Shown here: positions 19,281-38,188 of the stretch, piece after piece
How the letters are laid out: every line of letters starts with the position of its first letter
How positions within the stretch are numbered: the first letter of the stretch is position 1
Origin: a virus
Taxonomy: Duplodnaviria; Caudoviricetes
Strand: one strand, 5' to 3'
IMG/VR virus record: IMGVR_UViG_3300030380_004437
Span: 1 to 60,247 of that record
Length of the DNA stretch: 60,247 bases
Translations under genes and position numbers: made by a program
The notes under the pieces: generated by a model
The model's database searches: none
What the model saw: the letters and a program-made list of their open reading frames with translations, nothing else
Told to the model about the DNA's origin: nothing

Positions 19281-19312
19281 TCTGTACTTAAATGTGACTT
19301 AAAATCCTACAT

Positions 19313-19327
19313 GGGTGGGTGGGAGGG
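19313..19327 (+). other. Potential G-quadruplex GGGTGGGTGGGAGGG
   Basis: Four G3 tracts with 1-nt loops in an AT-rich genome; related copy at 19943-19962. Confidence 0.6.
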
Positions 19328-19449
19328 TGCAGGCACGCTATAAGGGGGGTAGCCCCCTAGTATAAGTTAAGTAAAAAGTAAAGGCATTTTTTCCTATATA
19401 ACTATAAGTTATTTACTTATATACTTTTAAATATACTTATTATTTACTA

Positions 19450-19477
19450 TTTACTTTTAAGTTAATAAGCGTATTAT
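19450..19477 (+). promoter_or_regulatory. Class I promoter (TTTACT-N16-TATTAT)
   Basis: Same architecture as 20064-20091; precedes paralogous gene. Confidence 0.7.
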
Positions 19478-19541
19478 AAACGTATTAGCTTAATTATTAA
19501 CCCTTTAAATTTAGCTAATTTAATTAACTAAAGGGCTTACT

Positions 19542-19745
19542 AAGGTACTTAAAATAGCTACTAAGTATAACTTAAACGCTAAAATAGTACTAGGTAATAC
19601 GGCTAAACTAGGCGAGAAAAACTCGGCTAAGTACAAAAGCTGGGTAGGTAAAACGGTTAAAGAAGTTTTTACTACTGGGCAAGGTACGGTTGATATAACC
19701 TATGCTATTAAAGTGGGCGGTATAAAACCTGTCCCTACCGAATAA
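19542..19745 (+). CDS. Small-domain family paralogue 1, no ATG (AAG at the homologous start position, or ATA 19554)
   Basis: KVLKIATKYNLNAKIVLGNTAKLGEKNSAKYKSWVGKTVKEVFTTGQGTVDITYAIKVGGIKPVPTE*; clearly homologous to 20155-20364; in-frame TAA at 19521; AAAGGG RBS, promoter and hairpin retained. Confidence 0.7.
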   Translation, partial: KVLKIATKYNLNAKIVLGNTAKLGEKNSAKYKSWVGKTVKEVFTTGQGTVDITYAIKVGGIKPVPTE

Positions 19746-19760
19746 AACGGTTTTAGTAAC

Positions 19761-19784
19761 GGCTAGGGGGTAAAACCCCTAGCC
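19761..19784 (+). terminator. Hairpin after paralogue 1
   Basis: GGCTAGGGG-GTAAAA-CCCCTAGCC; weak U-tract. Confidence 0.6.
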
Positions 19785-19810
19785 CTATTACTATATAAAG
19801 AACATACGAG

Positions 19811-19929
19811 CATCCGAACAACCATCTTTCTAAGATCTGCTAGCAGATCTGAATTGCGTGGCACATGCTTCATGTATTGGGGGCAGACGTTTTGATCTTT
19901 GTGTGTGTGTCATGCGATCTGATCTGATG
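19811..19929. repeat. SATS-dense block 1
   Basis: 11 GATC/CATG/CATC/GATG tetramers counted, plus (GT)5. Confidence 0.8.
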
Positions 19930-20063
19930 TGTTATCTACTTTGGGTGGGTGGGTGGTGAGGGAGCCGTATTATACCTTACATTTACTTTGGGGTAAAGCT
20001 TTTGATTTACTTATAACTTTTTATTATACCGTATAGCTAGAACTTATATACTTAACTTTCCGC

Positions 20064-20091
20064 TTTACTTTCATATTTATTAGCGTATTAT
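20064..20091 (+). promoter_or_regulatory. Class I promoter (TTTACT-N16-TATTAT)
   Basis: GCTTTACTTTCATATT is identical to the upstream part of the minus-strand promoter at 20915-20943. Confidence 0.75.
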
Positions 20092-20154
20092 ATACCTAAT
20101 GTTTAGTTATTAACCCTTTAAATTAAACATTTCCGACTAATAAAGGGTACTATA

Positions 20155-20364
20155 ATGGTGATTAAAATTAGTACTAAATACGATCTTAACGCTAAAATAG
20201 TTTTAGGTAGTAATATAGGACGCCTTGGTGAAAAAAACTCAGCTAAATACAAAAGCTGGGCTAATAAAACCGTAGCGGAAATATTCAAAACGGGTCAAGG
20301 ATCTGTTGACATTACCTACGCTATTAAGGTAAAAGGTATTCAAGAAGTACCTTCAGCTAAGTAA
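20155..20364 (+). CDS. Small-domain family paralogue 2
   Basis: RBS AAAGGG, own promoter and terminator; homologous to 19542-19745. Confidence 0.8.
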   Translation: MVIKISTKYDLNAKIVLGSNIGRLGEKNSAKYKSWANKTVAEIFKTGQGSVDITYAIKVKGIQEVPSAK

Positions 20365-20375
20365 GGCTGGGAACT

Positions 20376-20407
20376 GAGGGGGTGTAAAGCCCCCTCTCTT
20401 CTTTTTT
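20376..20407 (+). terminator. Intrinsic terminator
   Basis: GAGGGGG-TGTAAAG-CCCCCTC followed by TCTTCTTTTTT. Confidence 0.8.
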
Positions 20408-20419
20408 ACTACCCACGTC

Positions 20420-20576
20420 GATCCGATCGTGGTACGTGGTATTCTCTCTCTCAATGCGATCTGATCTGAAATGGTTATTGTAGTTGTAGTTGTGGTTGTT
20501 GTAATTATATAGGGGGAAGATGTTTTGATCTTGGGGGCACGGATTTTGATTTGACAATCCTTATGCCGATCCGATC
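20420..20576. repeat. SATS-dense block 2 with (TC)n and (TTGTAG)n-like tracts
   Basis: GATC pairs 5 bp apart at 20420/20425, 20458/20463, 20568/20573; lies between two convergent terminators. Confidence 0.75.
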
Positions 20577-20590
20577 TGAAGCAGGTATAT

Positions 20591-20618
20591 AAGAAGAGGG
20601 GCACTCTTCAGCACCCCT
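20591..20618 (-). terminator. Terminator of paralogue 3
   Basis: Minus strand AGGGGTGCT-GAAG-AGTGCCCCT followed by CTTCTT. Confidence 0.6.
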
Positions 20619-20632
20619 AATCTCATTCCCAG

Positions 20633-20866
20633 TTATTTAAAAGTCAGGAATCCACACTTTAGATCATAGACCAAGTCCGCCATTACTACAAGTCTTGGTT
20701 TAAGATCAAGAGCCTCTTGAGGCGTCTTCCCATTAAGTATAGGTTGACGCTCTGCGTTGTGCACAGCTCTTGGCGTTTTACTAGTTGCCACTAGTTCACG
20801 ATCCATATTTTCACGAACATAAGCGTTATTTATAACGATCGGTTTAGTTAAGTTTTTAGTAGTCAC
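20633..20866 (-). CDS. Small-domain family paralogue 3
   Basis: GTG start with AAGGAGG RBS; HNAER...GKTPQEAL...DLVYDLKCGFL. Confidence 0.75.
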   Translation of the reverse strand: MTTKNLTKPIVINNAYVRENMDRELVATSKTPRAVHNAERQPILNGKTPQEALDLKPRLVVMADLVYDLKCGFLTFK

Positions 20867-20914
20867 AATGACCCTCCTTAATTAATAGCTAAAACCATTT
20901 TTAACTATTTATAT

Positions 20915-20943
20915 AGTATAGCTAAGAACAATATGAAAGTAAA
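20915..20943 (-). promoter_or_regulatory. Class I promoter (TTTACT-N17-TATACT)
   Basis: Read directly; upstream of paralogue 3. Confidence 0.8.
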
Positions 20944-20968
20944 GCTAGATGTAAAGTTATTTAACGAA

Positions 20969-21177
20969 GATCACATCGTGTACTACACGTAGATCACAGT
21001 GCCATGGCACATGGTTCATGGGTATGTGTGTGTGTAACCCAGTTCGGATTGTGATGGGGGAAGATGTTTTGACGATGAACTCTGGACCATGGACCTAGAT
21101 CTGATCTGATTTCCGATCGCATGTGGTTCCTGGACCATGGGATTGTGATCGGGTGCCATGATTTGATGATTGTGATC
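20969..21177. repeat. SATS-dense block 3
   Basis: About 19 SATS tetramers, several at 10-11-bp spacing; GATCTGATCTGAT and (TG)n. Confidence 0.8.
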
Positions 21178-21371
21178 CTATTGCCCTATTGACGATTGTC
21201 CATAATTCATGGTTCTTTGTCCTTTCCTCAAGTATTTTGTGCCTTGTGTCAGAGTCCGTGGTTTCCTGGTTTCTTATATAGGGTCTAGAATACCTGTAAA
21301 TCATACTGCAATTATCTTTCCCATGCTTTATCTGCACCATGCACCACGACCCAAACACCACCCATTCTCAC

Positions 21372-21476
21372 CCTATTACCAAGAAACAGCCAATAGGTCG
21401 CTAATAGGGTAGCCAATAGGTCAAGAAAAGCGATGTACATCAGTGCTTCTAGACTCATGCCTATTAGCGTATTAGC
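21372..21476. repeat. GCYAATAGG iteron-like cluster A
   Basis: Direct copies at 21389, 21400, 21412; inverted copies at 21460 and 21469. Confidence 0.65.
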
Positions 21477-21528
21477 AAATCAGAGATATTTTAAGAAAAA
21501 TGTTTTATAAAATTGGTGAGATAATAAT

Positions 21529-21601
21529 AAGAAAGTGGTGTGAGAGAGTATTAACCCTAACTCCCTCACACCGTCACAGACAATTTGGGAGGGTCTGTGA
21601 C
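21529..21601 (-). terminator. Tandem hairpins ending the early minus-strand cluster
   Basis: GTCACAGAC...GTCTGTGAC (21573-21601) and GGTGTGAG...CTCACACC, followed on the minus strand by CTTTCTT. Confidence 0.6.
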
Positions 21602-21614
21602 TAGCTACTAAAAC

Positions 21615-21815
21615 CTATTCATCTTCCCATATTGGCGTGTTGCCACATAATTTAAATACTTCAACAATGGACTTTTGTTCACCAGTCTCACCGTTAGTAA
21701 GTTTCTCAGTCTCGCCACATGGTCGACAGAACTCAATCCAGTCACCACCCAGCACTAACATATTAGTACCTGACGCAGGACGCCTAGTTTCACAAATGCT
21801 ACAATAATTCGCCAT
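21615..21815 (-). CDS. Small CxxC-CxxC protein
   Basis: CSIC...CRPC; GAGGAGG RBS; class II promoter. Confidence 0.7.
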   Translation of the reverse strand: MANYCSICETRRPASGTNMLVLGGDWIEFCRPCGETEKLTNGETGEQKSIVEVFKLCGNTPIWEDE

Positions 21816-21851
21816 AATTTTTTCCTCCTCTTATAACTAATTTATAAATAT

Positions 21852-21880
21852 AGTATAGGTAAGATCCTAAAAGATGCCTA
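21852..21880 (-). promoter_or_regulatory. Class II promoter TAGG-CATC-N6-GATC-N5-TATACT
   Basis: One of 11 copies of a 29-bp motif, each upstream of an RBS and ATG. Confidence 0.85.
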
Positions 21881-21887
21881 TACTTCT

Positions 21888-22157
21888 CTAAGATTCTTGG
21901 CTATCTTCCGCTATAACATCATCCATGATTTCTTCTAGTTCTCCTGGTCCCACTAAACTATAATAATTAGTTTTCGCAATTACCCAAAAACCACCGAAAA
22001 TATCTGACCACTCTTCAGGATAACCCACTTCTTCAGCTTTAGCTTTATTACCAACGAACACAGCACCATATTTATTTTCAAGATGATTAATTAACCATTT
22101 TATAGGTTTAACCTCTTCATCTGTTTTAAAACTATTTAGTACATCAACAATCACCAT
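21888..22157 (-). CDS. Early hypothetical protein
   Basis: AAGGAGG RBS and own promoter. Confidence 0.7.
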   Translation of the reverse strand: MVIVDVLNSFKTDEEVKPIKWLINHLENKYGAVFVGNKAKAEEVGYPEEWSDIFGGFWVIAKTNYYSLVGPGELEEIMDDVIAEDSQES

Positions 22158-22190
22158 AAGTTCCTCCTTCTATAATTAACTTATTAATAA

Positions 22191-22219
22191 AGTATAGGTA
22201 AGATCTTATAAGATCCCTA
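22191..22219 (-). promoter_or_regulatory. Class II promoter (GATC/GATC)
   Basis: TAGGGATCTTATAAGATCTTACCTATACT. Confidence 0.85.
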
Positions 22220-22226
22220 TAGTTCT

Positions 22227-22526
22227 CTAATGATTTTCGTTATTCTCAAGGTAATGAATTTCCGCATCAAATGAGTAAGTCATTAGCTTATAAAGATCTA
22301 AATCCGTAAACTTACCGTTGATCTTAAACATTATATCATTAGCAAAATCACCAGTAGTAGCACCTTCTGCTTGAACGTAAGTATTATGATCACAAACATA
22401 GAAGTAGATGAAATTACCATTACCATTTACCCTAAGTTCATGAGGGATTTGAAATTTAATTTGAAGAGCTTTAGCTAAATGATATTCATTCGGCTGAAGT
22501 TCTATAAATTTAACATCTTCAGTCAT
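22227..22526 (-). CDS. Early hypothetical protein
   Basis: GGAGG RBS and own promoter. Confidence 0.7.
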   Translation of the reverse strand: MTEDVKFIELQPNEYHLAKALQIKFQIPHELRVNGNGNFIYFYVCDHNTYVQAEGATTGDFANDIMFKINGKFTDLDLYKLMTYSFDAEIHYLENNENH

Positions 22527-22561
22527 AAGTTGATCCTCCGTATTAATTAACTTATTAATAA

Positions 22562-22590
22562 AGTATAGCTAGGATCCTAAAGGATGCCTA
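22562..22590 (-). promoter_or_regulatory. Class II promoter (CATC/GATC)
   Basis: TAGGCATCCTTTAGGATCCTAGCTATACT. Confidence 0.85.
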
Positions 22591-22607
22591 TCTTGATGGC
22601 TATATTC

Positions 22608-23006
22608 TTAAGCACCCCATGCCCACTTACTACCCTCAAGAGGAACCTTGAAGTATTCTGTGAGTGCAGACGCACCTAGCGAACCACCGAGGGATAACGC
22701 TAAGTAAAAATGCATGCCACATTTACTATAAGATACCTGTATGATGCTGTATGAGCCACCGTCAGAGACAGGGAAGTAACAACTATCATAGACAGTATGC
22801 CAAGGGGCTAATTGGTCTTTCATGACAAACTTATAATGTTCATCATCATGACCGTCACACTCACCAAAATGGTAGAGTATTTTTTGATCATCATTGAGAT
22901 GATCCAGTATTACATCAAGAATACTTTGAACTCTTGCCTGTTCGGGGTCTGAGTTATCAAAGACGTCTGGATCTAATACGTCTGATTTACTAATAAGATC
23001 TAACAT
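22608..23006 (-). CDS. Early acidic hypothetical protein
   Basis: GGAGG RBS and own promoter. Confidence 0.7.
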   Translation of the reverse strand: MLDLISKSDVLDPDVFDNSDPEQARVQSILDVILDHLNDDQKILYHFGECDGHDDEHYKFVMKDQLAPWHTVYDSCYFPVSDGGSYSIIQVSYSKCGMHFYLALSLGGSLGASALTEYFKVPLEGSKWAWGA

Positions 23007-23035
23007 ATAATCCTCCGTTTTACTTATTAACTACT

Positions 23036-23064
23036 AGTATATAAAGCATCATAAAGGATGCCTA
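23036..23064 (-). promoter_or_regulatory. Class II promoter (CATC/GATG)
   Basis: TAGGCATCCTTTATGATGCTTTATATACT. Confidence 0.85.
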
Positions 23065-23082
23065 TCTTCCCTCGCTATATTC

Positions 23083-23637
23083 TTACTCAGAAGCCCAGTG
23101 AATCAAGTGGTGTTGATCAATATGATCCACTAAGTAATCAAGACCAAACCCATGAGACAAAAAGCTAAACGGACGCACTGTATCAGTGGTGACTATTCCC
23201 CAGCTGTCAGACGCTATAAAACCTGAGTCTTGTTGATAATACTGATGTTCCAGTAATACATAAACAGTATCATCACGAGTTATCTTCCACTCATGTAGAC
23301 ATTCACTAGCCTCTCGATGATACATTCCACTGAATACATCAACGACTTCTTCTGACAACTTTTTACGGTTCTCAGGAGACAGTTCCAGAACTACACGAGC
23401 ACCTGTTTCCTCACCAAAGCTGGCATACGCTAAAGGTATATCACCAGTAAACTCTTCGGGAGTAAACTTGCCACCGAATGGATCCATAAAGTTCACAAGA
23501 TCTTTTGAATCTTGAGCAAACAAATCCTCGGGACTGATCTCATAATAAGTAAGATCATAAAATTGATTATGATTTTCTCTGATAGCTCGCACCACAGGCT
23601 TCACATAATCAACATAGTTTTTTAAATTATTAGTCAT
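23083..23637 (-). CDS. Early hypothetical protein
   Basis: GGAGG RBS and own promoter. Confidence 0.7.
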   Translation of the reverse strand: MTNNLKNYVDYVKPVVRAIRENHNQFYDLTYYEISPEDLFAQDSKDLVNFMDPFGGKFTPEEFTGDIPLAYASFGEETGARVVLELSPENRKKLSEEVVDVFSGMYHREASECLHEWKITRDDTVYVLLEHQYYQQDSGFIASDSWGIVTTDTVRPFSFLSHGFGLDYLVDHIDQHHLIHWASE

Positions 23638-23666
23638 GTTTCCTCCATTAACTAACTTATAACTAA

Positions 23667-23695
23667 AGTATAAGTAAGATGCTAAGCGATCCCTA
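23667..23695 (-). promoter_or_regulatory. Class II promoter (GATC/CATC)
   Basis: TAGGGATCGCTTAGCATCTTACTTATACT. Confidence 0.85.
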
Positions 23696-23713
23696 GCATC
23701 TTCCTTATAATCA

Positions 23714-23941
23714 TTAACCTATTTCGACTTGGTCAAGAGTAAATCTAGGACCGAGTGACTCTTTGATATGTTGTACTAGTGTAGACCAGTTTTTTACGTC
23801 TTCGCTGGTGATAGTAAAGAAGTCTTCTAAACCATTACCTGCTTCATCTTGATAACCGATGCTGACTACATCATCGAGAGCAAATCTCCCGTAACATTCA
23901 ACACCATCGATTTCTTTATAAAAATTATAATTTACATTCAT
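23714..23941 (-). CDS. Early acidic hypothetical protein
   Basis: GGAGG RBS and own promoter. Confidence 0.7.
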   Translation of the reverse strand: MNVNYNFYKEIDGVECYGRFALDDVVSIGYQDEAGNGLEDFFTITSEDVKNWSTLVQHIKESLGPRFTLDQVEIG

Positions 23942-23975
23942 AATTCCTCCGTTGGTAAGTAAATTAATATAATTA

Positions 23976-24004
23976 AGTATAGGTAAGATGCTAAGCGATG
24001 CCTA
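23976..24004 (-). promoter_or_regulatory. Class II promoter (CATC/CATC)
   Basis: TAGGCATCGCTTAGCATCTTACCTATACT. Confidence 0.85.
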
Positions 24005-24031
24005 ACATCTTCCCTATAATGGTTAGTTAAT

Positions 24032-24244
24032 TTATGTTGCTACAAAGTCTTTATCGATGAGATCATCCGTACCTACTCTTCCCCACAGCTCTAGACCTAA
24101 CCTGATGTAAACAGATTCGAGCTTTGCATCGCCGAGAACTTTAGTATAGACTTGCTCTTCAGGTGTTCCTTCTTTGTAGACCAGGAACCTAGTAGCAGGG
24201 TCGATTGACCAACCCTGCTGTTTAAATCGTTCAACCTCTAGCAT
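24032..24244 (-). CDS. Early hypothetical protein
   Basis: Overlaps the upstream gene end. Confidence 0.6.
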   Translation of the reverse strand: MLEVERFKQQGWSIDPATRFLVYKEGTPEEQVYTKVLGDAKLESVYIRLGLELWGRVGTDDLIDKDFVAT

Positions 24245-24455
24245 CTTTCACCTTATTTTCTATGATGTCAATATCATCTAATAGGTCAGACACTCTGTTA
24301 ATACTACTAAGGTCAGACACTGGTAAGTCCCAGCGTTGTACAATAGTCCTAAAATTATCACGAGCATGTAATATGTCGGATATTATTTCTTTTAAATCAG
24401 TACACACTTGTTGCTGTGCATCTTGATTTAAACCTTCTTTAAACTCTTCGTTCAT
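24231..24455 (-). CDS. Early hypothetical protein
   Basis: GGAGG RBS and own promoter. Confidence 0.7.
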   Translation of the reverse strand: MNEEFKEGLNQDAQQQVCTDLKEIISDILHARDNFRTIVQRWDLPVSDLSSINRVSDLLDDIDIIENKVKDARG

Positions 24456-24488
24456 ACTTCCTCCGTTGTACGTTAAGTTAATAATTAA

Positions 24489-24517
24489 AGTATAGTAAAC
24501 ATCATTTTAGATGCCTA
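24489..24517 (-). promoter_or_regulatory. Class II promoter (CATC/GATG)
   Basis: TAGGCATCTAAAATGATGTTTACTATACT; its TAG is the stop codon of the upstream gene. Confidence 0.85.
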
Positions 24518-24859
24518 TACTTCGTCGCTATCTTCTTTTAGGTAAAATTCTACAGTACCGAAGGCACACGTGCCACCGTCATAGACTACTTCCTCACGAG
24601 ACTCAACACATAAGAATTTATACTTATTAGTCTCAAAGATAAGTAGAGTCTTGTTGTCGACACCACCGTGCGGACCGTTATATTCAAACTTACCTAGTTC
24701 ATGAGACATAGTGAGAGTGGCGAGTTCTCGGAGTGCTTCAATGAAACACCCACCGTCCTCGCCATCATAAGCATAAGTTCCGTTATAGCTTAAAGCCGTA
24801 TCACGAGCGAAACATACATCGACATGTTCCTCTAACTGTTCTACATTATCAAACCACAT
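24515..24859 (-). CDS. Early acidic hypothetical protein
   Basis: ORF track; follows the RHH-like gene. Confidence 0.65.
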   Translation of the reverse strand: MWFDNVEQLEEHVDVCFARDTALSYNGTYAYDGEDGGCFIEALRELATLTMSHELGKFEYNGPHGGVDNKTLLIFETNKYKFLCVESREEVVYDGGTCAFGTVEFYLKEDSDEV

Positions 24860-24862
24860 GAC

Positions 24863-25030
24863 TTACCCGTTATTCTCAGTATCAAACCATGCTTTAGTTG
24901 CTGCTCTAATAGCATTCGTTCTACCTATCTTAGCACCTGTTCGTTGGCTAAGCATTTCTGCGATATAGTCTACGTCCTCAGCTAAATCTTCGGGTAGTGC
25001 TACATTTATTCGCTTATCTTGATTATTCAT
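24863..25030 (-). CDS. Ribbon-helix-helix-like DNA-binding protein (55 aa)
   Basis: Not in track. MNNQDKRINVALPEDLAEDVDYIAEMLSQRTGAKIGRTNAIRAATKAWF...; AAGGAG RBS and own promoter. Confidence 0.6.
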   Translation of the reverse strand: MNNQDKRINVALPEDLAEDVDYIAEMLSQRTGAKIGRTNAIRAATKAWFDTENNG

Positions 25031-25056
25031 GATAACTCCTTTATTTAATATAATTA

Positions 25057-25085
25057 AGTATAGTAAGGATCATATACAATCCCTA
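25057..25085 (-). promoter_or_regulatory. Class II promoter (GATT/GATC)
   Basis: TAGGGATTGTATATGATCCTTACTATACT. Confidence 0.8.
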
Positions 25086-25165
25086 TCTTCTTCCTAAATT
25101 TTTTTAAGCTAAATCCAGCCCTTTCGAGCGTAGCAATTTAAAAGGTATAGTTAGGTATTATAAAT

Positions 25166-25199
25166 AAAGAAAGGGCTTAATCGAGCGTTGATTAAGCCC
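25166..25199 (-). terminator. Intrinsic terminator
   Basis: GGGCTTAATC...GATTAAGCCC with minus-strand TTTCTTT tail. Confidence 0.75.
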
Positions 25200-25225
25200 C
25201 ATTCGTACTTGAAGAGTTTAGCTAC

Positions 25226-25627
25226 CTAGTAGCCGTTTAAGAGTCTTTCTAAAGCCATGTCGAATTTAGTAGACATTTTGACTTTATCACCTGTATCTTT
25301 TTCTAACTCACGCACTTCAAAGAGATGTTCGCTTCTTTGACCATCAGTAAGTTTAAGTAGAACAGATTGATATTGCCTATTATTTTCTTCTGACACTTCA
25401 GTGAGTGGGTATAAGTTTACAAGACCATAAGTAAGTTTAGCTAAATCATAACCACTATCTATATAACCCCTTTTGATAAGATGTTCCCGTAAGTTCCTCA
25501 ACTCACTGGCTCTTTCTAAATCTACCTCTGAGTCACGGTGCCAATAATAACTATTAACTTCTTCCGCTACTTTCTGCAAGATACCGTGTACAGCGTTTAT
25601 GTCTGATTGATTATCAAATACTATCAT
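25226..25627 (-). CDS. Early hypothetical protein
   Basis: ATGA coupling to upstream small ORF. Confidence 0.65.
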   Translation of the reverse strand: MIVFDNQSDINAVHGILQKVAEEVNSYYWHRDSEVDLERASELRNLREHLIKRGYIDSGYDLAKLTYGLVNLYPLTEVSEENNRQYQSVLLKLTDGQRSEHLFEVRELEKDTGDKVKMSTKFDMALERLLNGY

Positions 25628-25755
25628 AGCACTTGCCCCAGTTCATGTAGCTCGTTAAGGAGTTTCTTTTGAGCAGTCACTGCTTTTTGTATTTTCTTGA
25701 GGTTTTTACGATTACCTACATGCTCTATATGTTTGATTATAGTTTCTGTTTTCAT
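25624..25755 (-). CDS. Small hypothetical protein (43 aa, MKTETIIKHIEHVG...)
   Basis: GGAG RBS, class II promoter, coupled to next gene. Confidence 0.6.
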   Translation of the reverse strand: MKTETIIKHIEHVGNRKNLKKIQKAVTAQKKLLNELHELGQVL

Positions 25756-25784
25756 ATTATCTCCATAATAAAATTAATATATAA

Positions 25785-25813
25785 AGTATAGTAGGGATCA
25801 CTAACGATCCCTA
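25785..25813 (-). promoter_or_regulatory. Class II promoter (GATC/GATC)
   Basis: TAGGGATCGTTAGTGATCCCTACTATACT. Confidence 0.85.
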
Positions 25814-25822
25814 CCATGATCA

Positions 25823-26026
25823 CTACTTAGTATCTTTCCACGCTATGAATATTTTAAGAGCTTCGCCTTTTGACAAGTCAAAACATTCTCTTAACATCAT
25901 AGGAGCTTGAAACATATTAGAACCACCTGAGTCCATCATGTCGTCCAAAAAGTCGTAGTACTCTTGATTTTGATCAAAGTGATCTTTATCATCAGCTTTG
26001 ATACTTTCATATTTATCTTTACTCAT
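25823..26026 (-). CDS. Small acidic hypothetical protein
   Basis: FLDDMMDSGGSNMFQAP..LRECFDLSKGEA. Confidence 0.65.
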   Translation of the reverse strand: MSKDKYESIKADDKDHFDQNQEYYDFLDDMMDSGGSNMFQAPMMLRECFDLSKGEALKIFIAWKDTK

Positions 26027-26027
26027 A

Positions 26028-26438
26028 TTACCACCATGCCTCCATTACGCAATTATGTTCTGCTGCCACCTCGAACAAAGTTGCTAGGTCTTTGATTTCT
26101 TTAACCCTAAAATCATAAGTGCCTCTACTACTAGGTAAAGACCACTCAAACCTATGGTCATCAGGTAAATCATTTAACCCGTTATCTTCTATATACTCTC
26201 GCAAGAGTAACCCATACACTCGTAACTCATCAGTTTGTATAACTTCGTCTTGATCTAAATGCCAGAAAGCTGGACTTGACGCAGTTAAATGAGCTACGAA
26301 CTCCTCATAGCAACCACCTCTAAACGAGCCATTACCATGACCACTAAACAAACCTCCTACGAGGGTAAGATTATCGAGACGGTCGTCTTTAAATACTTCG
26401 TCACGATTACCTTTCATTACATAACAATCTAAACCCAT
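26028..26438 (-). CDS. MGLD-start hypothetical protein
   Basis: MGLDCY...FRG...WW C-terminus; GGAGG RBS. Confidence 0.7.
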   Translation of the reverse strand: MGLDCYVMKGNRDEVFKDDRLDNLTLVGGLFSGHGNGSFRGGCYEEFVAHLTASSPAFWHLDQDEVIQTDELRVYGLLLREYIEDNGLNDLPDDHRFEWSLPSSRGTYDFRVKEIKDLATLFEVAAEHNCVMEAWW

Positions 26439-26447
26439 GGGTACCTC

Positions 26448-26708
26448 CTACCATTGTTGGCGAACAATCATTGAATGTTCTTTGTTATCTACTATTTTAT
26501 AAGCAAAGATGTCAGTACACTTTTTATCATTGTACACAGCATCCTTTGCACCTTGGTGAGTAAGTGACGACATGTATAAACTCCAAGGTTCATCATCTCT
26601 TGCGTCAATACCCTTATATTGCCTGAAGACCCTAAACCTGAGTACAGTTTCTACATACTCAGTCTCTGGGTCATGTTCAGGGACTTCTATATCATCTATA
26701 TTGATCAT
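26448..26708 (-). CDS. Early hypothetical protein
   Basis: ORF track, tightly packed. Confidence 0.6.
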   Translation of the reverse strand: MINIDDIEVPEHDPETEYVETVLRFRVFRQYKGIDARDDEPWSLYMSSLTHQGAKDAVYNDKKCTDIFAYKIVDNKEHSMIVRQQW

Positions 26709-26709
26709 A

Positions 26710-26838
26710 TTACTTACCTATATATTTGATATCTTTTTTAGGGATCACCTGATAAGCTCCCTTATTATACGCAGGGGCAATAGTGTATTGACTACTGATG
26801 CGCCTACGCTCCTCAGGTGTTAAAGTTTTATTTTTCAT
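26710..26838 (-). CDS. Small protein with TIAPAYNKGAYQVI motif (42 aa)
   Basis: Not in track; GGAG RBS and class II promoter. Confidence 0.6.
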   Translation of the reverse strand: MKNKTLTPEERRRISSQYTIAPAYNKGAYQVIPKKDIKYIGK

Positions 26839-26870
26839 ATATTCTCCGTGTATAAAAAATTAATATATAA

Positions 26871-26899
26871 AGTATATTAATGATCAAGTTTGATGCCTA
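26871..26899 (-). promoter_or_regulatory. Class II promoter (CATC/GATC), inside the 3' end of the upstream gene
   Basis: TAGGCATCAAACTTGATCATTAATATACT. Confidence 0.85.
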
Positions 26900-27140
26900 G
26901 GATATTTCCCTTTGATCTTTTACAACCTTTACAAGTATGCACCACTGATTCTTTATTCCTATCTATAACTGTATAACCACCAACATATTTTATTTTAATT
27001 ACATGAGTCGAGTGATCCATGCTTTCAAGAAAACCGTGTTGGTATTTTGTGCCCATGCGTTTATGACCCTGATACTCACCAAAGTTCACTTCCTGTTTAC
27101 ACAGGTCACACCATTTAAAATTATGTTTTTCTGCTGACAT
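26877..27140 (-). CDS. CxxC-CxxC hypothetical protein
   Basis: CDLC...CKGC; AGGAG RBS. Confidence 0.65.
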   Translation of the reverse strand: MSAEKHNFKWCDLCKQEVNFGEYQGHKRMGTKYQHGFLESMDHSTHVIKIKYVGGYTVIDRNKESVVHTCKGCKRSKGNILGIKLDH

Positions 27141-27251
27141 TTAATTCTCCTATAAGTAGAGTGCTGGACGAGGGAGGAGAATCATCTTTTTAGGGAGAGA
27201 TCGCCCAGCACCTACAAGTAATATAACTCAACGAGTCATATACGACTAGAT

Positions 27252-27569
27252 TTATTTTGAAAGTTTTTCTACTATCTCGATAAATCCACGGTCGACATCG
27301 TATTTGATGTCTTGGTAAGCGTACCTTCGTGACTCAAGTGCTTCACGTACAGTCTTCTTATTGAAGTCTAGTACACGCTCTTGATTATGTGTCACTCTAG
27401 GTATTTTACCAGTTGTGACTATAAAGTGGTCAGGATTATACTTTCCTGGCTTTATAACCTTTTCACCAGACTTAGCAATCTCTGCTAGGTTGGTTGCGAC
27501 AGCTAACTTTATGTTAGCTACCTTTTTAGTTGTGGCAGGTTTAACTACCTTCTTAACACTTTTTTTCAT
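27252..27569 (-). CDS. Small-domain family paralogue 4 with basic N-terminal tail
   Basis: KYNPD...HNQER...KKTVREAL...DIKYDVDRGFIEI; AGGAG RBS. Confidence 0.75.
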   Translation of the reverse strand: MKKSVKKVVKPATTKKVANIKLAVATNLAEIAKSGEKVIKPGKYNPDHFIVTTGKIPRVTHNQERVLDFNKKTVREALESRRYAYQDIKYDVDRGFIEIVEKLSK

Positions 27570-27611
27570 ATCTGCTCCTAAGTTTTGAGTTATTAATTAA
27601 AAAGTTAAGTA

Positions 27612-27640
27612 AGCATAACTTACTAGATATAGAAAGTAAA
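27612..27640 (-). promoter_or_regulatory. Class I promoter (TTTACT-N17-TATGCT)
   Basis: Upstream of paralogue 4; preceded by a class II-like AAGG-CATC-N7-GATC element at 27645-27663. Confidence 0.75.
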
Positions 27641-27751
27641 GCTCGATCATATTATGATGCCTTTCTTGTTAAATTAAATATATCTCTAGATTATATACCA
27701 AGACAATAAGACACATTCCCATGATAAGTATAATAAGATCTCTTATATCTA

Positions 27752-27901
27752 TCATCTTCCTTGTCCTCTATATGCTTTATAAGACCTTCTCTTATTTTTA
27801 TTCATAGTCGAGAAACCTACATTGCCTCGACCTTGAGAAGTTTTCTTACCACGTGATCCGCACTTCGGCACATGGGCAGTAGTTCCTAATCTTATTTTCA
27901 T
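27752..27901 (-). CDS. Small basic protein (49 aa, ...KKTSQGRG...MNKNKRRSYKAYRGQGR)
   Basis: ATGA coupling; not in track. Confidence 0.6.
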   Translation of the reverse strand: MKIRLGTTAHVPKCGSRGKKTSQGRGNVGFSTMNKNKRRSYKAYRGQGR

Positions 27902-28407
27902 AAGTATTTACTCCTTATGGTATCAGTAGCTGTACATTTTTCACATAGAAACAAGCCGTGCTCTTTGACTACGGCTGGTGCGTCACAATTATCACAGTAC
28001 ATTTGGGTATTGTTTATATAGTCCTCAATACGTTTTACAAGTATTTTAGCACGTTTATTACGACCCCACGCTCCAGTTTTAACAGGTAAATCTAAAGCTT
28101 TACATATCTCAGCGAGAAATTCCATATTATTTACGGCTATAACTTCGTCCATAGGTTTATCATCTTTACCATATATTTGACCGTTAAACAACGCAAACAT
28201 ATCGAGAGGATTACTTTTATGAATTTTAGTGACATATTCGACAAACCTATCAGGGACACCTACCTTCCTAAAAAAGCTAGGGTGGAAAAAGCCGTAGCCA
28301 TCAGCTACGACACACTCCTGTGCCCAGTCATAGATAGATCGTTTTACATCACGAGCCATAAAATAATATTCAACATCATCACTAGTATTTAAGTTTTTAT
28401 ATTTCAT
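27898..28407 (-). CDS. Hypothetical protein with C-terminal CxxC-CxxC
   Basis: AAGGAG RBS; CDNC...CEKC. Confidence 0.65.
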   Translation of the reverse strand: MKYKNLNTSDDVEYYFMARDVKRSIYDWAQECVVADGYGFFHPSFFRKVGVPDRFVEYVTKIHKSNPLDMFALFNGQIYGKDDKPMDEVIAVNNMEFLAEICKALDLPVKTGAWGRNKRAKILVKRIEDYINNTQMYCDNCDAPAVVKEHGLFLCEKCTATDTIRSKYL

Positions 28408-28463
28408 ATTACTCCTTATTTATAAACCTTTATTTTAGTAAACATCAAAGTGAGATAAAAGCA

Positions 28464-28652
28464 TCAATCCTTTTTCTTCATTTTTCTTTTATATTCATCA
28501 CGCATTATCATTGTTATTTCTTTCATGTTTTCAGTAGTATAGGGTGCATCGCCTAAGAATTCATAAGACATATCAGGTAGTTCATTAGAGCCTTTGTATT
28601 TGTTGTTCCAGTTTTCCTTTTTATTTTTGTTCCAGTTCTTCCTTTTACTCAT
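28464..28652 (-). CDS. Small basic hypothetical protein
   Basis: ORF track. Confidence 0.5.
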   Translation of the reverse strand: MSKRKNWNKNKKENWNNKYKGSNELPDMSYEFLGDAPYTTENMKEITMIMRDEYKRKMKKKD

Positions 28653-28790
28653 TGGTTGACCTGCTGTGTAAGATTAACTGCCTTATAAAAACCCTTAAAA
28701 ATATAAAGGGTGCGTCTACGCAGTGTCACACACATCTTACTTTGGTTCTCACTCCAGCAGGCAAAAGCAGAGGAGGATTGCAGACGCTTC

Positions 28791-29342
28791 TTAAAAAACA
28801 TTCTTATACCTCTCGTATAGTTCTTCTCTTTCGTTTACCAATTGTTTGTAATCTTTTACTTTGAAATTATCATAGTATTTTGTTTTTTGTAGCTTTCTGC
28901 TTTCATGTACTAAATCACTAAGCTTCTGGACAAAGATCATAGGATACGGTCCAACTTCCTCGTCATTGTATGCATTAGTACCGAACAGCTCAATACCTTC
29001 TTCGGTATCATCAGGGTGGCTACCCATTATAAATATGTCTTTTTTCCATAAGATACATTGATTTTGTTTAGTTATGAAATTATTAAACTCAGTAAATGAC
29101 CTTTCGTTAAAGGTACTGACGAGTATAAGAATATCCTCTTTATGATGATCAAAAGTAGGAATAAATTTTTCGTAGAAAGACTCAGAAAATAAACTTGTAT
29201 TTATTTCTATTCTAGCCCTGTCCTCATGTAATGCTTTAGCAGCATATGGGCACACAGGCAACCAATCTAATAACTCGTTCGGTTTAGCTAAAAATTCGTA
29301 AACCCAACAATGTATATCTTTTTCAATCTTCGATGATAACAT
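28791..29342 (-). CDS. DUF1415-like hypothetical protein
   Basis: WV.EFL.KPN...LPVCPYA.KA...SHPD...PYPMIFVQ. Confidence 0.5.
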   Translation of the reverse strand: MLSSKIEKDIHCWVYEFLAKPNELLDWLPVCPYAAKALHEDRARIEINTSLFSESFYEKFIPTFDHHKEDILILVSTFNERSFTEFNNFITKQNQCILWKKDIFIMGSHPDDTEEGIELFGTNAYNDEEVGPYPMIFVQKLSDLVHESRKLQKTKYYDNFKVKDYKQLVNEREELYERYKNVF

Positions 29343-29604
29343 CCTCGAGTACTCCTTCCTTATTTACTCGTACACTGTGTGAGAAACCTTTTTCTTCAGG
29401 TTTATGCTCTGTCATAGCTTTAGAAAACTCGGGACTTATATAGCCCCTATTTTCTAATTTTTGGTTATTTTGTATTACTTGTGCTATGCGTTTAGCATAA
29501 CTATTGGGGTCAGCTATAAATTGGTAAGACTCTTGATTACCTTGAGAGTCCCAACCTGTTTCAGTATAACCTTCCTCTGTGACTTTAAATTTAAAATATG
29601 TCAT
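29323..29604 (-). CDS. Early hypothetical protein
   Basis: GGAGG RBS and own promoter. Confidence 0.65.
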   Translation of the reverse strand: MTYFKFKVTEEGYTETGWDSQGNQESYQFIADPNSYAKRIAQVIQNNQKLENRGYISPEFSKAMTEHKPEEKGFSHSVRVNKEGVLEDVIIED

Positions 29605-29633
29605 AAGTTCCTCCGTTTAATTATATTTAATTA

Positions 29634-29662
29634 AGTATAGCTAGGATGTATTATCATCACTA
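29634..29662 (-). promoter_or_regulatory. Class II promoter variant (TAGT-GATG/CATC) inside the terS 3' end
   Basis: TAGTGATGATAATACATCCTAGCTATACT. Confidence 0.75.
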
Positions 29663-30159
29663 GCATTTTTCGTTATTATCCTTTGCTCCTCTTCTTCTAG
29701 TTCTTCAGGCTCCACTTCTATTATCTTGCCAGCAGGTAATACACCACCTGTATCATAATATAGTTGCTTCATACGTTCAAGCACTTCTTCTTTTGACATG
29801 GTATCTACTCTGTTTACAGTAAGTTCACTTCTGTTTACATATAGACCTGCAGCTTTACCACGAGCCACCTCTGCTGTTACTGCTGCAGAGAAAGCGTTAT
29901 TACGCATAGCACCGTCACGAATATCTTTTAAATCCTTTAAATGAGTTCCTAAACTAAGTTCTGCCTTATCTGCAGCTTTTTCTTGTAACTCACCTATTCT
30001 CTTTTGAACTAATGGATTATCTTTACTCGTTAGCACTGTACCAGCTTTCCCTGCATTCTTCTCGCTATACCCAGCGTGTTTTGCAGCATCTTTTTTACTC
30101 ATGCCTTTAGCGACATTTTGAGCAAACTTTTCTTGTTTTGGTGTTAGCTTATCCGCCAT
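29641..30159 (-). CDS. terS: Terminase small subunit
   Basis: LTPKQEKFAQNVAKGMSKKDAAKHAGYSEK...ARGKAAGLY pattern. Confidence 0.75.
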   Translation of the reverse strand: MADKLTPKQEKFAQNVAKGMSKKDAAKHAGYSEKNAGKAGTVLTSKDNPLVQKRIGELQEKAADKAELSLGTHLKDLKDIRDGAMRNNAFSAAVTAEVARGKAAGLYVNRSELTVNRVDTMSKEEVLERMKQLYYDTGGVLPAGKIIEVEPEELEEEEQRIITKNASDDNTS

Positions 30160-37138: not shown

Positions 37139-38188
37139 TTATTTTATTCTTCTAGATAGCCATCTAAAGCAAGCTTCCATCCAATCATCAGCTTTACAAT
37201 GTTGTATTTCTATAAGTGCTTCTTCCTTACTCTCCTCTTTAGAGAGATACCAAGCATCTTGTATAGGTACTGCGACGTCAGTGAAAAATGGATCTTTGAA
37301 TTCCATTTGCTGAAAAGGTTTTCTAGTAAAAAACATAATTAAGTCTGCTTCCCAATCACGAAAGTCTACACTTACCATTGGATAGGGATTTACTTCATCT
37401 AGTTTATACGGATTGTGATTAATTAATAGCTTTATTGTGTAATAATCAAAAGAGTCTATTTGTAGTAATTTTTCTCTCATAGGCTCATATACATTTAAGT
37501 ACGCATGATAATTATTACTCACTTGATAATACTTACCCATTCTTATACCTGTTGCTGCAGCTACGAACTCATGTAACATTGACATGTGTACCACGTTTGC
37601 TCCATATGCACCCCAGATAATATCATTTGACCTATTTGATACTGTCATATCGAGACGAGGACTGTAGCCGTCTATGTGTACAGTTTTAAAGTATATAGTC
37701 GTATTACAGGGTACGTCAGCTCCATCTCGCCCTAAATCGCCCACAGCGTCCCACATTTGTAGGACACAGCGTCTATCGTAAGGGTCGTGTTTAAGTCTAT
37801 CAATAATAATTCTTACTTGGTCTTTACCAGCAAAATCTTTAAATATAGGGTCTTTGAAATAACTTCTCCATCTCCAGCCATACGCTCCCCACAATGTTTC
37901 ACCATCATCACTATATCTACTCATACCTTTATTGTAGTACTCCATGGTAGCTAAGTCATTAAAACCAGCCAGCATCCATAAACCTTCCATAAAATGGAAA
38001 AAGGGGTTAGCGTCTCTATCTGGGTCAAATAAAACTCTCTCGCTAGGGTTAGCATAAACTGTAGTAACTGGTTCTTCTACAGTGATGACTTTACCGTTTC
38101 TAGTATTTTCTATATGACCATTCGAGTCAAGTAAATCCATACCTCTTAAAAAGGCATCGTTTACATTTCTACAGTTTAATGTGTGCAT
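37139..38188 (-). CDS. Thymidylate synthase-fold dUMP hydroxymethylase (5-hmdU synthesis)
   Basis: Catalytic DVPCN; RSNDIIWGAYGAN (Asn implies dUMP specificity); NPFFHFMEGLWMLAG and GAYGWRWR as in YuA/M6-type enzymes; clustered with a 5-hmdU DNA kinase. Confidence 0.8.
   Translation of the reverse strand: MHTLNCRNVNDAFLRGMDLLDSNGHIENTRNGKVITVEEPVTTVYANPSERVLFDPDRDANPFFHFMEGLWMLAGFNDLATMEYYNKGMSRYSDDGETLWGAYGWRWRSYFKDPIFKDFAGKDQVRIIIDRLKHDPYDRRCVLQMWDAVGDLGRDGADVPCNTTIYFKTVHIDGYSPRLDMTVSNRSNDIIWGAYGANVVHMSMLHEFVAAATGIRMGKYYQVSNNYHAYLNVYEPMREKLLQIDSFDYYTIKLLINHNPYKLDEVNPYPMVSVDFRDWEADLIMFFTRKPFQQMEFKDPFFTDVAVPIQDAWYLSKEESKEEALIEIQHCKADDWMEACFRWLSRRIK

Follow-up and report, generated by a model that had tools for sequence, protein, structure and literature searches.

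Three non-coding blocks in a marine phage genome, block A (19811..19929), block B (20420..20576) and block C (20969..21177), none of them assigned to a strand, are tentatively interpreted here as clustered docking sites in the early control region for small DNA-binding proteins of the phage, which probably read these sites in combination with DNA modification. They would be cis-acting DNA of this region: arrays around GATC/CATG cores may serve as sites for small phage-encoded winged-helix-like proteins (a 77-aa protein and the products of small ORF2 and small ORF1), binding of these proteins would determine how active or how insulated the small transcription units are, each with a promoter of its own, and hypermodification would be part of what the block-binding proteins read. 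We base these proposals about protein binding, modification state and regulatory outcome on composition, motifs, conservation, synteny and modification genes. The whole stretch of DNA analyzed (60,247 bp) is referred to below as the window.

Genomic setting of the blocks

The three blocks occupy a 2.4-kb gap separating the end of the early/replication operon from the start of the late operon (terminase, portal, head). This gap is the largest non-coding region of the phage genome, the remainder of which is tightly packed. Block A lies between the hairpin that ends small ORF1 (19554..19745, + strand) and the promoter of small ORF2 (20155..20364, + strand). Block B lies between predicted convergent terminators (20376-20396 on the + strand and 20618-20597 on the - strand), and block C immediately precedes, on the upstream side, the promoter from which the 77-aa gene (20633..20866, - strand) would be transcribed. 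The block C region is bounded by a 48-aa hydrophobic ORF (21312..21458, - strand) that is conserved in distant relatives. The initial annotation placed all blocks outside the predicted transcripts; this holds for block B, but for blocks A and C it depends on promoter-like matches only. A DNA search of region 19400-21500 against deposited phages gave no match, and no tRNA was detected.

With the blocks 1.9-3.2 kb upstream of the large terminase gene, which heads the late operon, they could also form a packaging signal (pac or cos) in which the small terminase subunit would bind a series of sites; in P1, pac is itself a cluster of GATC-containing hexamers. We regard this as very improbable. The sole small terminase match (PF03592, E 1.1e-10) lies some 9 kb from the blocks (29641-30159), the six complete related records do not share a start position, and neither a site at the small terminase gene nor fixed ends there was found. 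In addition, DNA contigs from three runs (three studies) bridge all three blocks, although such contigs are also compatible with virion ends.

Sequencing runs were examined as assembled contigs, in which molecule ends, strand and modification are invisible. RNA-library contigs span 19821-21474, with none over 19510-19710 or 21520-22122, an absence to which no meaning is attached. One RNA-library bin (20314-20514) had a depth of 12219; its loose ends are GTTGTA repeats, and it was discarded as unrelated low-complexity contigs. Small non-coding RNA genes would agree with this coverage and with the folding of the + strand of block A, which is better than that of its shuffles (z -2.8, 1 of 200), but they appear extremely unlikely. 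RNA-library contigs do not show transcription, and block B is enclosed by the convergent terminators. Seven of the eight folds have z values of -1.7 to +2.2 against 200 shuffles, the block A hairpin is interrupted by a 96-nt insertion in a close relative (L003), and Rfam yielded only three matches (E 0.29-0.63), all far under gathering scores. These mostly unremarkable folds, the Rfam result and the off-frame indels described below leave neither a protein nor an RNA product to account for the blocks, which had been named at the outset as the finding that would explain them away.

Composition of the blocks

A total of 833 SATS tetramers were found in the window (1.38 per 100 bp). The initial annotation counted 11, 8 and 19 of them in blocks A, B and C, and these counts are exact, with every site at its listed position; 5, 7 and 7 of the sites, respectively, are GATC. 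That such numbers are far above expectation was borne out by tetramer enrichment statistics with two types of shuffles. Mononucleotide shuffles gave 1.8, 2.1 and 3.2 SATS for blocks A, B and C (P = 0, 0.0008 and 0; 5000 shuffles), and dinucleotide-preserving shuffles gave 6.2, 4.8 and 14.0 (P = 0.0005, 0.049 and 0.011). For GATC alone, the shuffles contained 1.2, 1.7 and 2.5 sites (P ≤ 0.004 for each block), and 19 of the 164 genomic GATC sites fall inside the 485 bp of the blocks, which corresponds to a local 14-fold excess. TG/TC dinucleotides on both strands numbered 45, 47 and 81, compared with 29.5, 38.3 and 52.1 after shuffling (P = 0, 0.035 and 0). Among all 150-bp windows of the genome (mean 34.4, sd 5.8), the two richest in TG/TC start at 21027 (60, in block C, the densest of the genome) and at 19808 (53, in block A). 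Of the three, block B, with its (TC)n and (TTGTAG)n runs, clearly shows the weakest enrichment.

Phasing of the sites had been proposed as well. The individual 5-bp and 10-11-bp spacings are present, but a Rayleigh-type scan of periods 4-16 detected no significant overall periodicity in any block (P 0.40-0.94). This lack of helical periodicity was also counted against binding arrays.

Oriented motifs and predicted promoters

The blocks contain repeated sequence-specific motifs that go beyond composition. The earlier observation that the same sequence recurs in all three blocks was reproduced: the 12-mer GATCTGATCTGA occurs exactly at 19916, 20458 and 21098, once per block, and with one mismatch at 20568, always on the + strand (0.21 expected). 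The pattern GGGGN6-7TTTTGAT has four sites within 19879-20550, also all on the + strand (0.07 expected), and exact 12-mers and 17-mers are repeated in the blocks in a single orientation. Each block carries one oriented composite unit leading from the G-motif to the 12-mer (G5-N6-TTTTGA ... GATCYGATCTGA). Copy A (19879..19927, + strand) extends from GGGGGCAGACGTTTTGA to GATCTGATCTGA, copy B (20533..20579, + strand) from GGGGGCACGGATTTTGA to GATCCGATCTGA, with an extra G-motif at 20512 and an extra 12-mer at 20458, and copy C (21056..21109, + strand) from GGGGGAAGATGTTTTGA to GATCTGATCTGA. A perfect 18-bp palindrome, AGATCTGCTAGCAGATCT (19833..19850, no strand), is found inside block A, and the G-run motif TGGGTGGGTGGGAGG (19312..19326, + strand) has a second copy just past block A (19942-19956) and is invariant in relatives L003 and L004. 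An exact scan of 80 terminase-anchored loci detected the G-motif pattern in L004 and L006, and GATCNGATC in L003, L004 and L009, plus L034, L037 and L042. That the 12-mer and the G-motif all face one way is unusual for dimeric operators and counts against binding arrays.

Elsewhere in the genome, SATS is a putative read element in predicted promoters. Eleven aligned early promoters of the form TAGG-SATS-N6-SATS-N5-TATACT were predicted on the - strand within 21817..29666 (-10 ends at 21852, 22191, 22562, 23036, 23667, 23976, 24489, 25057, 25785, 26871 and 29634), with SATS-N6-SATS as their -35 region. Genomic matches to SATS-N6-SATS-N4-6-TATA[CA]T number 10 on the minus strand and none on the plus strand. 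A weight matrix derived from the upstream halves of these 11 promoters placed no block among its 45 best matches; thus, the blocks are not arrays of the promoter element. The oriented, conserved motifs near genes for winged-helix-like proteins, together with the SATS pairs in the 11 promoters, point to protein recognition rather than to mere modification density.

Conservation in related phages

In L003 (~95% identical), block A has an extra tandem expansion of ~96 nt. In L004 (72-81% identical), block B is kept and block C is rearranged by off-frame indels of 45, 11, 10, 1 and 1 nt. For a broader comparison, the 400 nt located 5' of the 77-aa-type gene were collected from the window and 13 relatives, picked from 28 distinct homologue ORFs in related loci after exclusion of seven longer paralogues, two opposite-strand genes, four with a short upstream stretch and two near-duplicates. 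GATCACA, ACCATGG, CATGGTC, ATGGTCC and GATCGCA were each found in all 14 upstream regions, and GATCACA alone has 39 occurrences upstream of 77-aa-type genes, 78-fold over its frequency in the window. Block C, with the GATCACA/TGTGATC and CCATGG motifs common to the relatives, is the local form of this motif array, which precedes the 77-aa-type gene in 14 of 14 genomes. Upstream SATS numbered 8-21 for 15 genes of the 77-aa type, 5-9 for the seven longer paralogues and 2-4 for the two opposite-strand genes (~5-8 expected). A short-word search with 21230-21335 matched only five loci. Only block C shows motifs conserved at the same place relative to a gene; blocks A and B are recognizable only in L003, L004, L006 and L009, and this limitation to close relatives was likewise counted against binding arrays.

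Some of these observations would also suit neutral, fast-evolving repeat DNA, a functionless filler produced by slippage and local duplication. The block region contains a tandem duplication of a 615-bp module (~71% identity between copies), and close strains differ by expansions and deletions. Moreover, contigs of relatives stop at a distance of 2-4.5 kb on the upstream side of the terminase gene in 41 of 68 cases, compared with 26 of 63 on the other side, an excess that fits strain-level variability. Nevertheless, we consider this explanation quite improbable: the motifs persist in relatives whose terminases are 82-86% identical, their statistics are far past chance, and the phage genome is otherwise compact.

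Small proteins encoded beside the blocks

Three paralogous genes beside and between the blocks (the 77-aa gene, ORF2 and ORF1) belong to a family of small proteins predicted, from models of two of them, to be winged-helix-like. The models of the 77-aa protein (pLDDT 89.9) and of the 69-aa product of ORF2 (pLDDT 76.2) have the same order of elements, beta-alpha-alpha-alpha-beta. Profile comparison linked the 77-aa family to the 69-aa family (E 1.4e-4) and to a protein of the TS-free cassette in L053 (E 3.5e-5). Both models gave the same weak structure matches, dominated by winged-helix domains: the YcfD C-terminal domain, PriA WH, RRE, MarR, MecI and a Z-alpha domain; VIA structure scores were weak (Z ≤ 5.1 for the 77-aa and ≤ 4.6 for the 69-aa model), and so was the best Foldseek match of the 77-aa model (E 2.1). 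Because the fold matches are weak and a shared fold as modeled shows no function, this also counts against binding arrays. Neither protein matched a Pfam or PHROG family or an initiator family. A large-database search with the 77-aa protein returned only three near-identical proteins. Leads from a protein atlas suggesting that it is related to an IS3 transposase fragment were at chance level (score 0.91, 135 shared features) and were rejected, and the atlas had no usable matches for the 69-aa protein.

Modification genes and the TS-free zone

A modification gene set is encoded on the - strand at 37139..39821. The product of 37139-38188 (PF00303, E 1.1e-22; phrog_5131, E 8.2e-113) would fit the dUMP hydroxymethylase slot as a thymidylate-synthase homologue, the comparison leaving hydroxymethylase and methylase undistinguished. 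It is followed by a TAGT-like glycosyltransferase (38188-38964) and by a 5-hmdU DNA kinase helical-domain/aGPT-Pplase1-like protein (38961-39821; PF18723, E 6.5e-46), which is 41-43% identical to YuA/M6-type proteins annotated as aGPT-Pplase1 or HMUDK helical domain. The PF18723 component is present as the helical domain, and a separate P-loop kinase was not identified. In hypermodifying phages, only part of the thymidines carry the modification.

Next to the blocks, the genome also shows the opposite extreme. As the initial annotation stated, zones poor in T followed by G or C (TS) adjoin the blocks, and they proved to be real and extreme. The TS-free zone (19393..19614, no strand; GC 23%) is a run of 222 bp without TG, TC, CA or GA (0 vs 39.6 expected from base composition), compared with longest runs of 34-45 bp in twenty Markov simulations. 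It spans the promoter and 5' leader hairpin of small ORF1 together with its initial codons, and is accompanied by TS-free runs of 60 bp (19741-19800) and 51 bp (19335-19385); block A begins 11 bp past the former. Small ORF1 is paralogous to ORF2 and lacks an ATG, GTG or TTG start: ATA occupies the position of ATG in relatives L004 and L009, and the encoded protein contains hardly any D, E, Q, H, M, C or W. The TS-free zone of L053 coincides with an entire transcription unit from promoter to terminator (566 nt, with 7 TS vs 124 expected).

The occurrence of such zones was compared with that of the kinase gene. PF18723 was detected in five of five complete relatives, and only two of them have long TS-free runs. 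YuA has the kinase gene, yet no TS-free zone was found in the 50 of its 58.7 kb examined; two more distant phages without PF18723 also had no such zones in the 15.5 and 39.5 kb examined. A link between the zones and the kinase gene was therefore set aside as inseparable from ancestry.

The low-GC, TS-free stretch raises the question of a replication origin, in which the motifs would be iterons of a small winged-helix initiator, the AT-rich, modification-free zone an unwinding element, and the strong promoters a means of transcriptional activation. Many initiators are winged-helix proteins with sites next to their own gene, GATC clusters mark oriC and P1 oriR, and here the repeat copy number differs between strains, genes for winged-helix-like proteins are adjacent, and the largest non-coding region contains the blocks. 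An origin nonetheless seems distinctly unlikely. The zone of L053 greatly exceeds the length required for unwinding, the proteins, at 69-77 aa, are very small and match no initiator family, and GC skew, dominated by one-strand coding, gave no origin signal.

A second alternative is that dense hypermodified T acts alone, with no sequence-specific protein, so that the blocks are exonuclease or RNA polymerase barriers, insulators of unmodified cassettes, or nuclease decoys. In M6, ViI and phiW-14, T followed by G or C was inferred from restriction data as the likely hypermodified context (2019, PMC6449724, available text). Every SATS has T followed by G or C on both strands. Because each tetramer thus holds the reported target context on both strands, the TS rule of these phages, if applied here, would make the blocks the most densely hypermodified DNA and leave the neighboring ORF1 gene unmodified. 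The available portions of three reports (PMC6449724, PMC5889632, PMC8989533) state that the exact modification motifs are not known and contain no map of modified and unmodified regions, and another, as far as its accessible text goes, describes nucleases sensing hypermodified phage DNA (PMC12191111). The compositional extremes of the genome adjoin each other, with the two top TG/TC windows directly beside the three lowest zones. Block A follows a hairpin and block B is framed by convergent terminators, positions that would suit barriers, and in L053 and L045 a TS-free gene has TCTG and GATC runs on its flanks.

Pure modification density is unlikely, if less starkly so than the previous alternatives. 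SATS and GATC exceed what the dinucleotide content of the blocks predicts, exact 12-mers and 17-mers recur in one orientation, and particular 7-mers persist in all 14 upstream regions amid diverging sequence. For 15 relatives whose TS-free run reaches at least 80 bp, the enrichment is modest: flanking TG/TC density is only 1.2-2.1 sd over the locus mean, and it is the locus maximum within 700 nt in only three of the 15. This modest flank enrichment was also counted against binding arrays. The initial interpretation of the blocks as candidate maximally modified elements stands in part: modification genes, TS context and compositional extremes agree with it, but the oriented, conserved motifs point to protein recognition.

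The favored binding-site arrays could be part of a wider scheme. It is conceivable, though doubtful, that the sequence of the genome itself encodes a map of where it is hypermodified. Whole small transcription units written free of T-G and T-C on both strands would stay canonical DNA, SATS arrays and promoters would be maximally modifiable, and the mark would be read by winged-helix-like proteins timing early versus later transcription, rather than being only a restriction shield.

That thymidine modification in hypermodifying phages is only partial has long been known; as to the rule behind it, the available text of the reports gives the motifs as not known in 2018 and infers TS in 2019. This phage group provides a natural experiment, in which a gene and its promoter avoid TS completely, giving up the usual start codon and a quarter of the amino acids, beside arrays that maximize TS. 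If the proposals are true, the TS rule extends to abundant marine phages, phages place modified and unmodified DNA deliberately, and there are defined DNA sites and candidate reader proteins with which to ask whether hypermodified T acts in gene regulation. Even as ordinary operators or as an origin, the blocks would identify the control region of a phage group that is widespread and uncultured.

Comparison with known systems

The closest known pathway is the 5-hmdU DNA kinase pathway of M6, ViI and phiW-14, with which this phage shares homologous enzymes (the thymidylate-synthase homologue and the PF18723 protein). The modified context inferred there, TG, TC and their complements in the text available, consists of the same dinucleotides that define the blocks and the empty zone here. 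Different from that system, a TAGT-like glycosyltransferase is also encoded in this genome, and the chemistry here is predicted from its genes. YuA differs from this phage in its lack of a TS-free zone over the part examined.

Arrays of operators or iterons next to a gene for a winged-helix regulator or initiator are known, for example, from lambda O/ori and plasmid Rep iterons. The blocks share with them short motifs in several copies, palindromes, copy numbers that vary from strain to strain, and a neighboring gene whose product is small and winged-helix-like. In contrast, the proteins here have only 69-77 aa and belong to no named family, the main repeats face one way, and the sites coincide with the predicted modification context. 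The local GATC excess also resembles the GATC clusters of the P1 pac site and oriC, but the small terminase gene is far from the blocks, and a scan of 44 of the 85 ORFs revealed no Dam-type methylase.

T4 MotA-dependent middle promoters combine a -10 with a phage-specific element in place of the -35 hexamer, on modified DNA. The predicted SATS-N6-SATS promoters parallel this class and differ in that the element is a pair of tetramers 10 bp apart; neither a MotA nor an AsiA homologue was found among the same 44 of 85 ORFs.

Base J (glucosyl-hydroxymethyluracil) of kinetoplastids is a bulky T-derived base located at strand-switch regions and transcription-unit borders, near G-runs. The hmU-pathway genes, the glycosyltransferase and the G-run motifs beside the blocks recall this setting, although organism and enzymes differ, and a comparable base at these sites is hypothetical here. 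Finally, TF1 of SPO1 is an abundant small HU-like phage protein preferring hmU-DNA sites. The models obtained here are winged-helix-like, unlike HU-like TF1, but these proteins would resemble it as small, probably abundant phage proteins that may read modified T at particular sites.

Genomic context

The record is 60,247 bp long and classed as complete, and no end repeats were detected in it. It carries 85 ORFs of at least 50 codons, nearly all on the minus strand, of which 44 were covered by a Pfam or PHROGs scan. The matches include the large terminase subunit (16436-17953), the portal (14066-16417), head, tail-fibre and ejection proteins at both record ends, DNA polymerase A, an exonuclease, a primase and helicases, and a small terminase subunit (29641-30159). 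This sole small-terminase match and the large subunit are separated by about 12 kb, the former being located amid early genes; the annotated small subunits of phages HTVC027P and 023Pt_psg01 are likewise separate from the large one, on the opposite strand. A 33-nt tandem repeat (4.8 copies, 1086-1272) lies within a 322-aa ORF (1069-2037) beside the tail-fibre gene. Based on terminase identity, the closest cultured relatives are the Pelagibacter phages HTVC027P (61.5%) and HTVC023P (56.4%), and a terminase-based search collected 80 related loci (designated L numbers). In the close relatives L003-L009, a stretch of approximately 1.5 kb that is missing from the window (between 17953 and 17945) separates the large terminase gene from an upstream 126-aa gene. 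HTVC027P has a 550-bp intergenic gap (L084 4182-4731, or 17670-18219 of its record) that is far more G+C-rich than its surroundings, looks structured and may be an RNA gene. Contigs of relatives (L003-L082) stop 2-4.5 kb upstream of the terminase gene in 41 of 68 cases and at the same distance downstream in 26 of 63; possible causes of the upstream excess are variation among strains, repeats and inefficient sequencing of modified DNA.

Read along the minus strand, the region comprises the early operon end, a conserved 48-aa hydrophobic ORF, block C (20969-21177), the promoter, gene (20633-20866) and terminator of a 77-aa protein, and block B (20420-20576). These are followed by the terminator, gene (20155-20364) and promoter of the convergent plus-strand ORF2 (69 aa), a G-run motif, block A (19811-19929), the hairpin, gene (19554-19745, plus strand) and promoter of ORF1, which form a TS-free unit (TS, T followed by G or C), a second G-run motif and the late operon start. 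Thus, the blocks fill gaps between small, separately promoted units encoding paralogues of one small-protein family.

Motif content of the blocks

A recount of SATS tetramers (S, G or C) reproduced every number and position in the initial annotation, as well as the claimed excess (5 to 9 per 100 bp in the blocks versus 1.38 genome-wide). SATS was enriched over both mononucleotide and dinucleotide-preserving shuffles, marginally for block B in the latter (P = 0.049). GATC by itself is overrepresented in every block (P ≤ 0.004), with 19 of the genome's 164 copies falling within the blocks' 485 bp. The densest 150-bp TG/TC windows of the genome, counted on both strands, are in block C (60) and block A (53), compared with a mean of 34.4 (sd 5.8). 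A pure modification barrier or decoy, as suggested previously, seems unlikely to account for the blocks.

The recurring 12-mer GATCTGATCTGA has one copy per block and no other exact site in the window. As to the reported phasing, local 5-bp and 10-11-bp spacings do exist, but overall periodicity was not significant. Each block contains one oriented composite unit, in which a G-run motif is followed 20-25 bp on by GATCYGATCTGA, and block A also holds a perfect 18-bp palindrome. Among strains the composite units grow, shrink and shift, and the motifs persist; that the blocks are neutral repeat DNA is considered improbable. Two G-run motifs (TGGGTGGGTGGG...), at 19312-19326 (invariant in L003 and L004) and 19942-19956, each just before an AT-rich promoter region, can in principle form a G-quadruplex. 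A (TTGTAG)n run is present in block B (20478-20499); RNA-library contigs reach a depth of 12,219 over its bin, their loose ends are the same repeat, and they are probably unrelated low-complexity contigs. RNA genes within the blocks are hardly credible, given that no Rfam match came near the gathering score and seven of eight block folds were no better than shuffles. A packaging site is very improbable as well, because the small terminase gene is distant and all blocks are bridged by DNA contigs of three runs.

Eleven intergenic minus-strand sites between 21.8 and 29.7 kb share the arrangement TAGG-SATS-N6-SATS-N5-TATACT followed by a ribosome-binding site, and a search with the SATS-N6-SATS promoter pattern returned ten minus-strand and no plus-strand occurrences. 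GATC in the position proximal to and upstream of TATACT recurs in L013 and L053, and the distal tetramer is lost in L003. This shared pattern and its recurrence in relatives indicate that, in this genome, something reads SATS as an element. A weight matrix derived from the promoters does not detect the blocks, so they are not simply promoter halves stacked together.

Block C and the small-protein family

The promoter of the 77-aa gene is immediately preceded by block C. When the 400 nt preceding genes of this type were compared in the window and 13 relatives, GATCACA, ACCATGG, CATGGTC, ATGGTCC and GATCGCA were present in all 14 stretches, at 29- to 78-fold the window background. Fifteen genes of the 77-aa type had 8-21 SATS upstream, compared with 5-9 for a longer type of paralogue and 2-4 for paralogues on the opposite strand. 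The 77-aa protein gave a high-confidence fold model (pLDDT 89.9), and the 69-aa protein, whose model has the same order of elements, weakly matches the 77-aa family in profile comparison (E 1.4e-4). Both models returned an identical list of weak fold matches, mostly winged-helix domains (Z at most 5.1); this predicted winged-helix-like fold is a lead towards DNA binding, not proof of it.

We tentatively propose that the blocks are candidate binding-site arrays in an early control region, to which the region's small winged-helix-like proteins would bind, with the predicted dense modification probably contributing to the signal. A replication origin is an unlikely alternative reading of the same arrays.

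TS-free zone

Nothing else in the region is as striking as the TpS-poor zones reported next to the blocks: 19393-19614 contains no TG, TC, CA or GA over 222 bp, where 39.6 are expected from base composition, and the longest TS-free runs in twenty simulated genomes were 34-45. Scanning all ten reverse-complement-closed dinucleotide classes revealed abnormal empty runs only for CA/TG (3.4 times the expected longest run) and GA/TC (2.7 times), both here, versus 0.9-1.4 for the remaining classes. Reverse-complementing the avoided set leaves it unchanged, so the constraint operates on double-stranded DNA rather than on the RNA. The zone spans a promoter-like site of ORF1 (TTTACT-16-TATTAT, by sequence match), a hairpin in the leader and the initial codons of the gene. 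TG is present in every canonical start codon, and ORF1 has no in-frame ATG, GTG or TTG start; its ATA at 19554-19556, a state common to the window, L003, L006 and L007, corresponds to ATG in L004 and L009, and the protein sequence is conserved in the three relatives that share the ATA.

TS-free runs of at least 80 bp upstream of the terminase gene were found in 15 of the 80 loci, many of which end short of this region. The related sequence G001 begins within its own TS-free unit. In L053 and L045, whose terminases are about 85% identical to that of the window, a different small plus-strand gene is nearly TS-free from promoter to terminator, with 7 TS in 566 nt versus 124 expected, and 5 versus 69 in its 104-codon ORF. 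Its protein, of the same family as the 77-aa protein (profile comparison, E 3.5e-5), contains only 3.8% D, E, Q, H, M, C and W in sum, versus 26.6% in five large window proteins. The gene for the 5-hmdU DNA kinase helical-domain protein (PF18723; 38961-39821 in the window) was present in all five complete relatives tested, only two of which have long TS-free runs. No such runs were detected in the parts read of two more distant phages, both without this gene; Pseudomonas phage YuA carries the gene and has no TS-free zone in the 50 kb read. The zone is therefore not a universal feature.

Thymidine modification and comparison with known systems

Besides the kinase-domain protein, the thymidine-modification set of the window (Pfam/PHROGs) includes a thymidylate-synthase homologue, a TAGT-like glycosyltransferase and a 2OG-Fe(II) oxygenase. 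Palindromic tetramers lacking T are nearly purged (CCGG 0 versus 20 expected, GGCC 6 versus 48, GCGC 4 versus 31, CGCG 3 versus 16), whereas the twelve containing T occur at 0.68-1.01 of expectation. L053 shows this purge as well, as does L063 for CCGG and GGCC, but the two phages that have no kinase-domain gene do not; the loci without it are L024, L037, L084 (HTVC027P) and L091 (023Pt_psg01). The pattern is consistent with shielding of T-containing sites in the genome, which further supports active T modification. Tetramers that lack TS, GTAC and CTAG among them, are however not purged, so either every T carries some alteration or the hosts do not have those enzymes. In L091 (39.5 kb read), CATG is completely absent versus 103 expected, which points to strong selection by a host enzyme that cuts CATG.

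Thymidine-hypermodification genes are described in some clades of uncultured phages of the HTVC027P/HTVC023P type, in an article whose accessible text does not contain the words intergenic, noncoding or promoter (PMC9599517). Literature searches gave no account of genes free of modification, or of arrays dense in it, in phages with this kind of hypermodification. A 2018 paper describes the modification as sequence-specific, with the exact motifs not known (PMC5889632), and in the passages of a 2021 paper that we consulted no target motif was found (PMC8989533). In DNA of phages M6, ViI and phiW-14, TG or TC is common to the restriction sites that resist cutting; the authors proposed TS as the context converted by the 5-hmdU DNA kinase, and modification of TG in SP8 DNA by the M6 kinase is mentioned in the same text (PMC6449724). 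Should this rule also apply to the window's homologous enzymes, the TS-free zone would lack hypermodified T, and the highest level of modification in the genome would be in the blocks.
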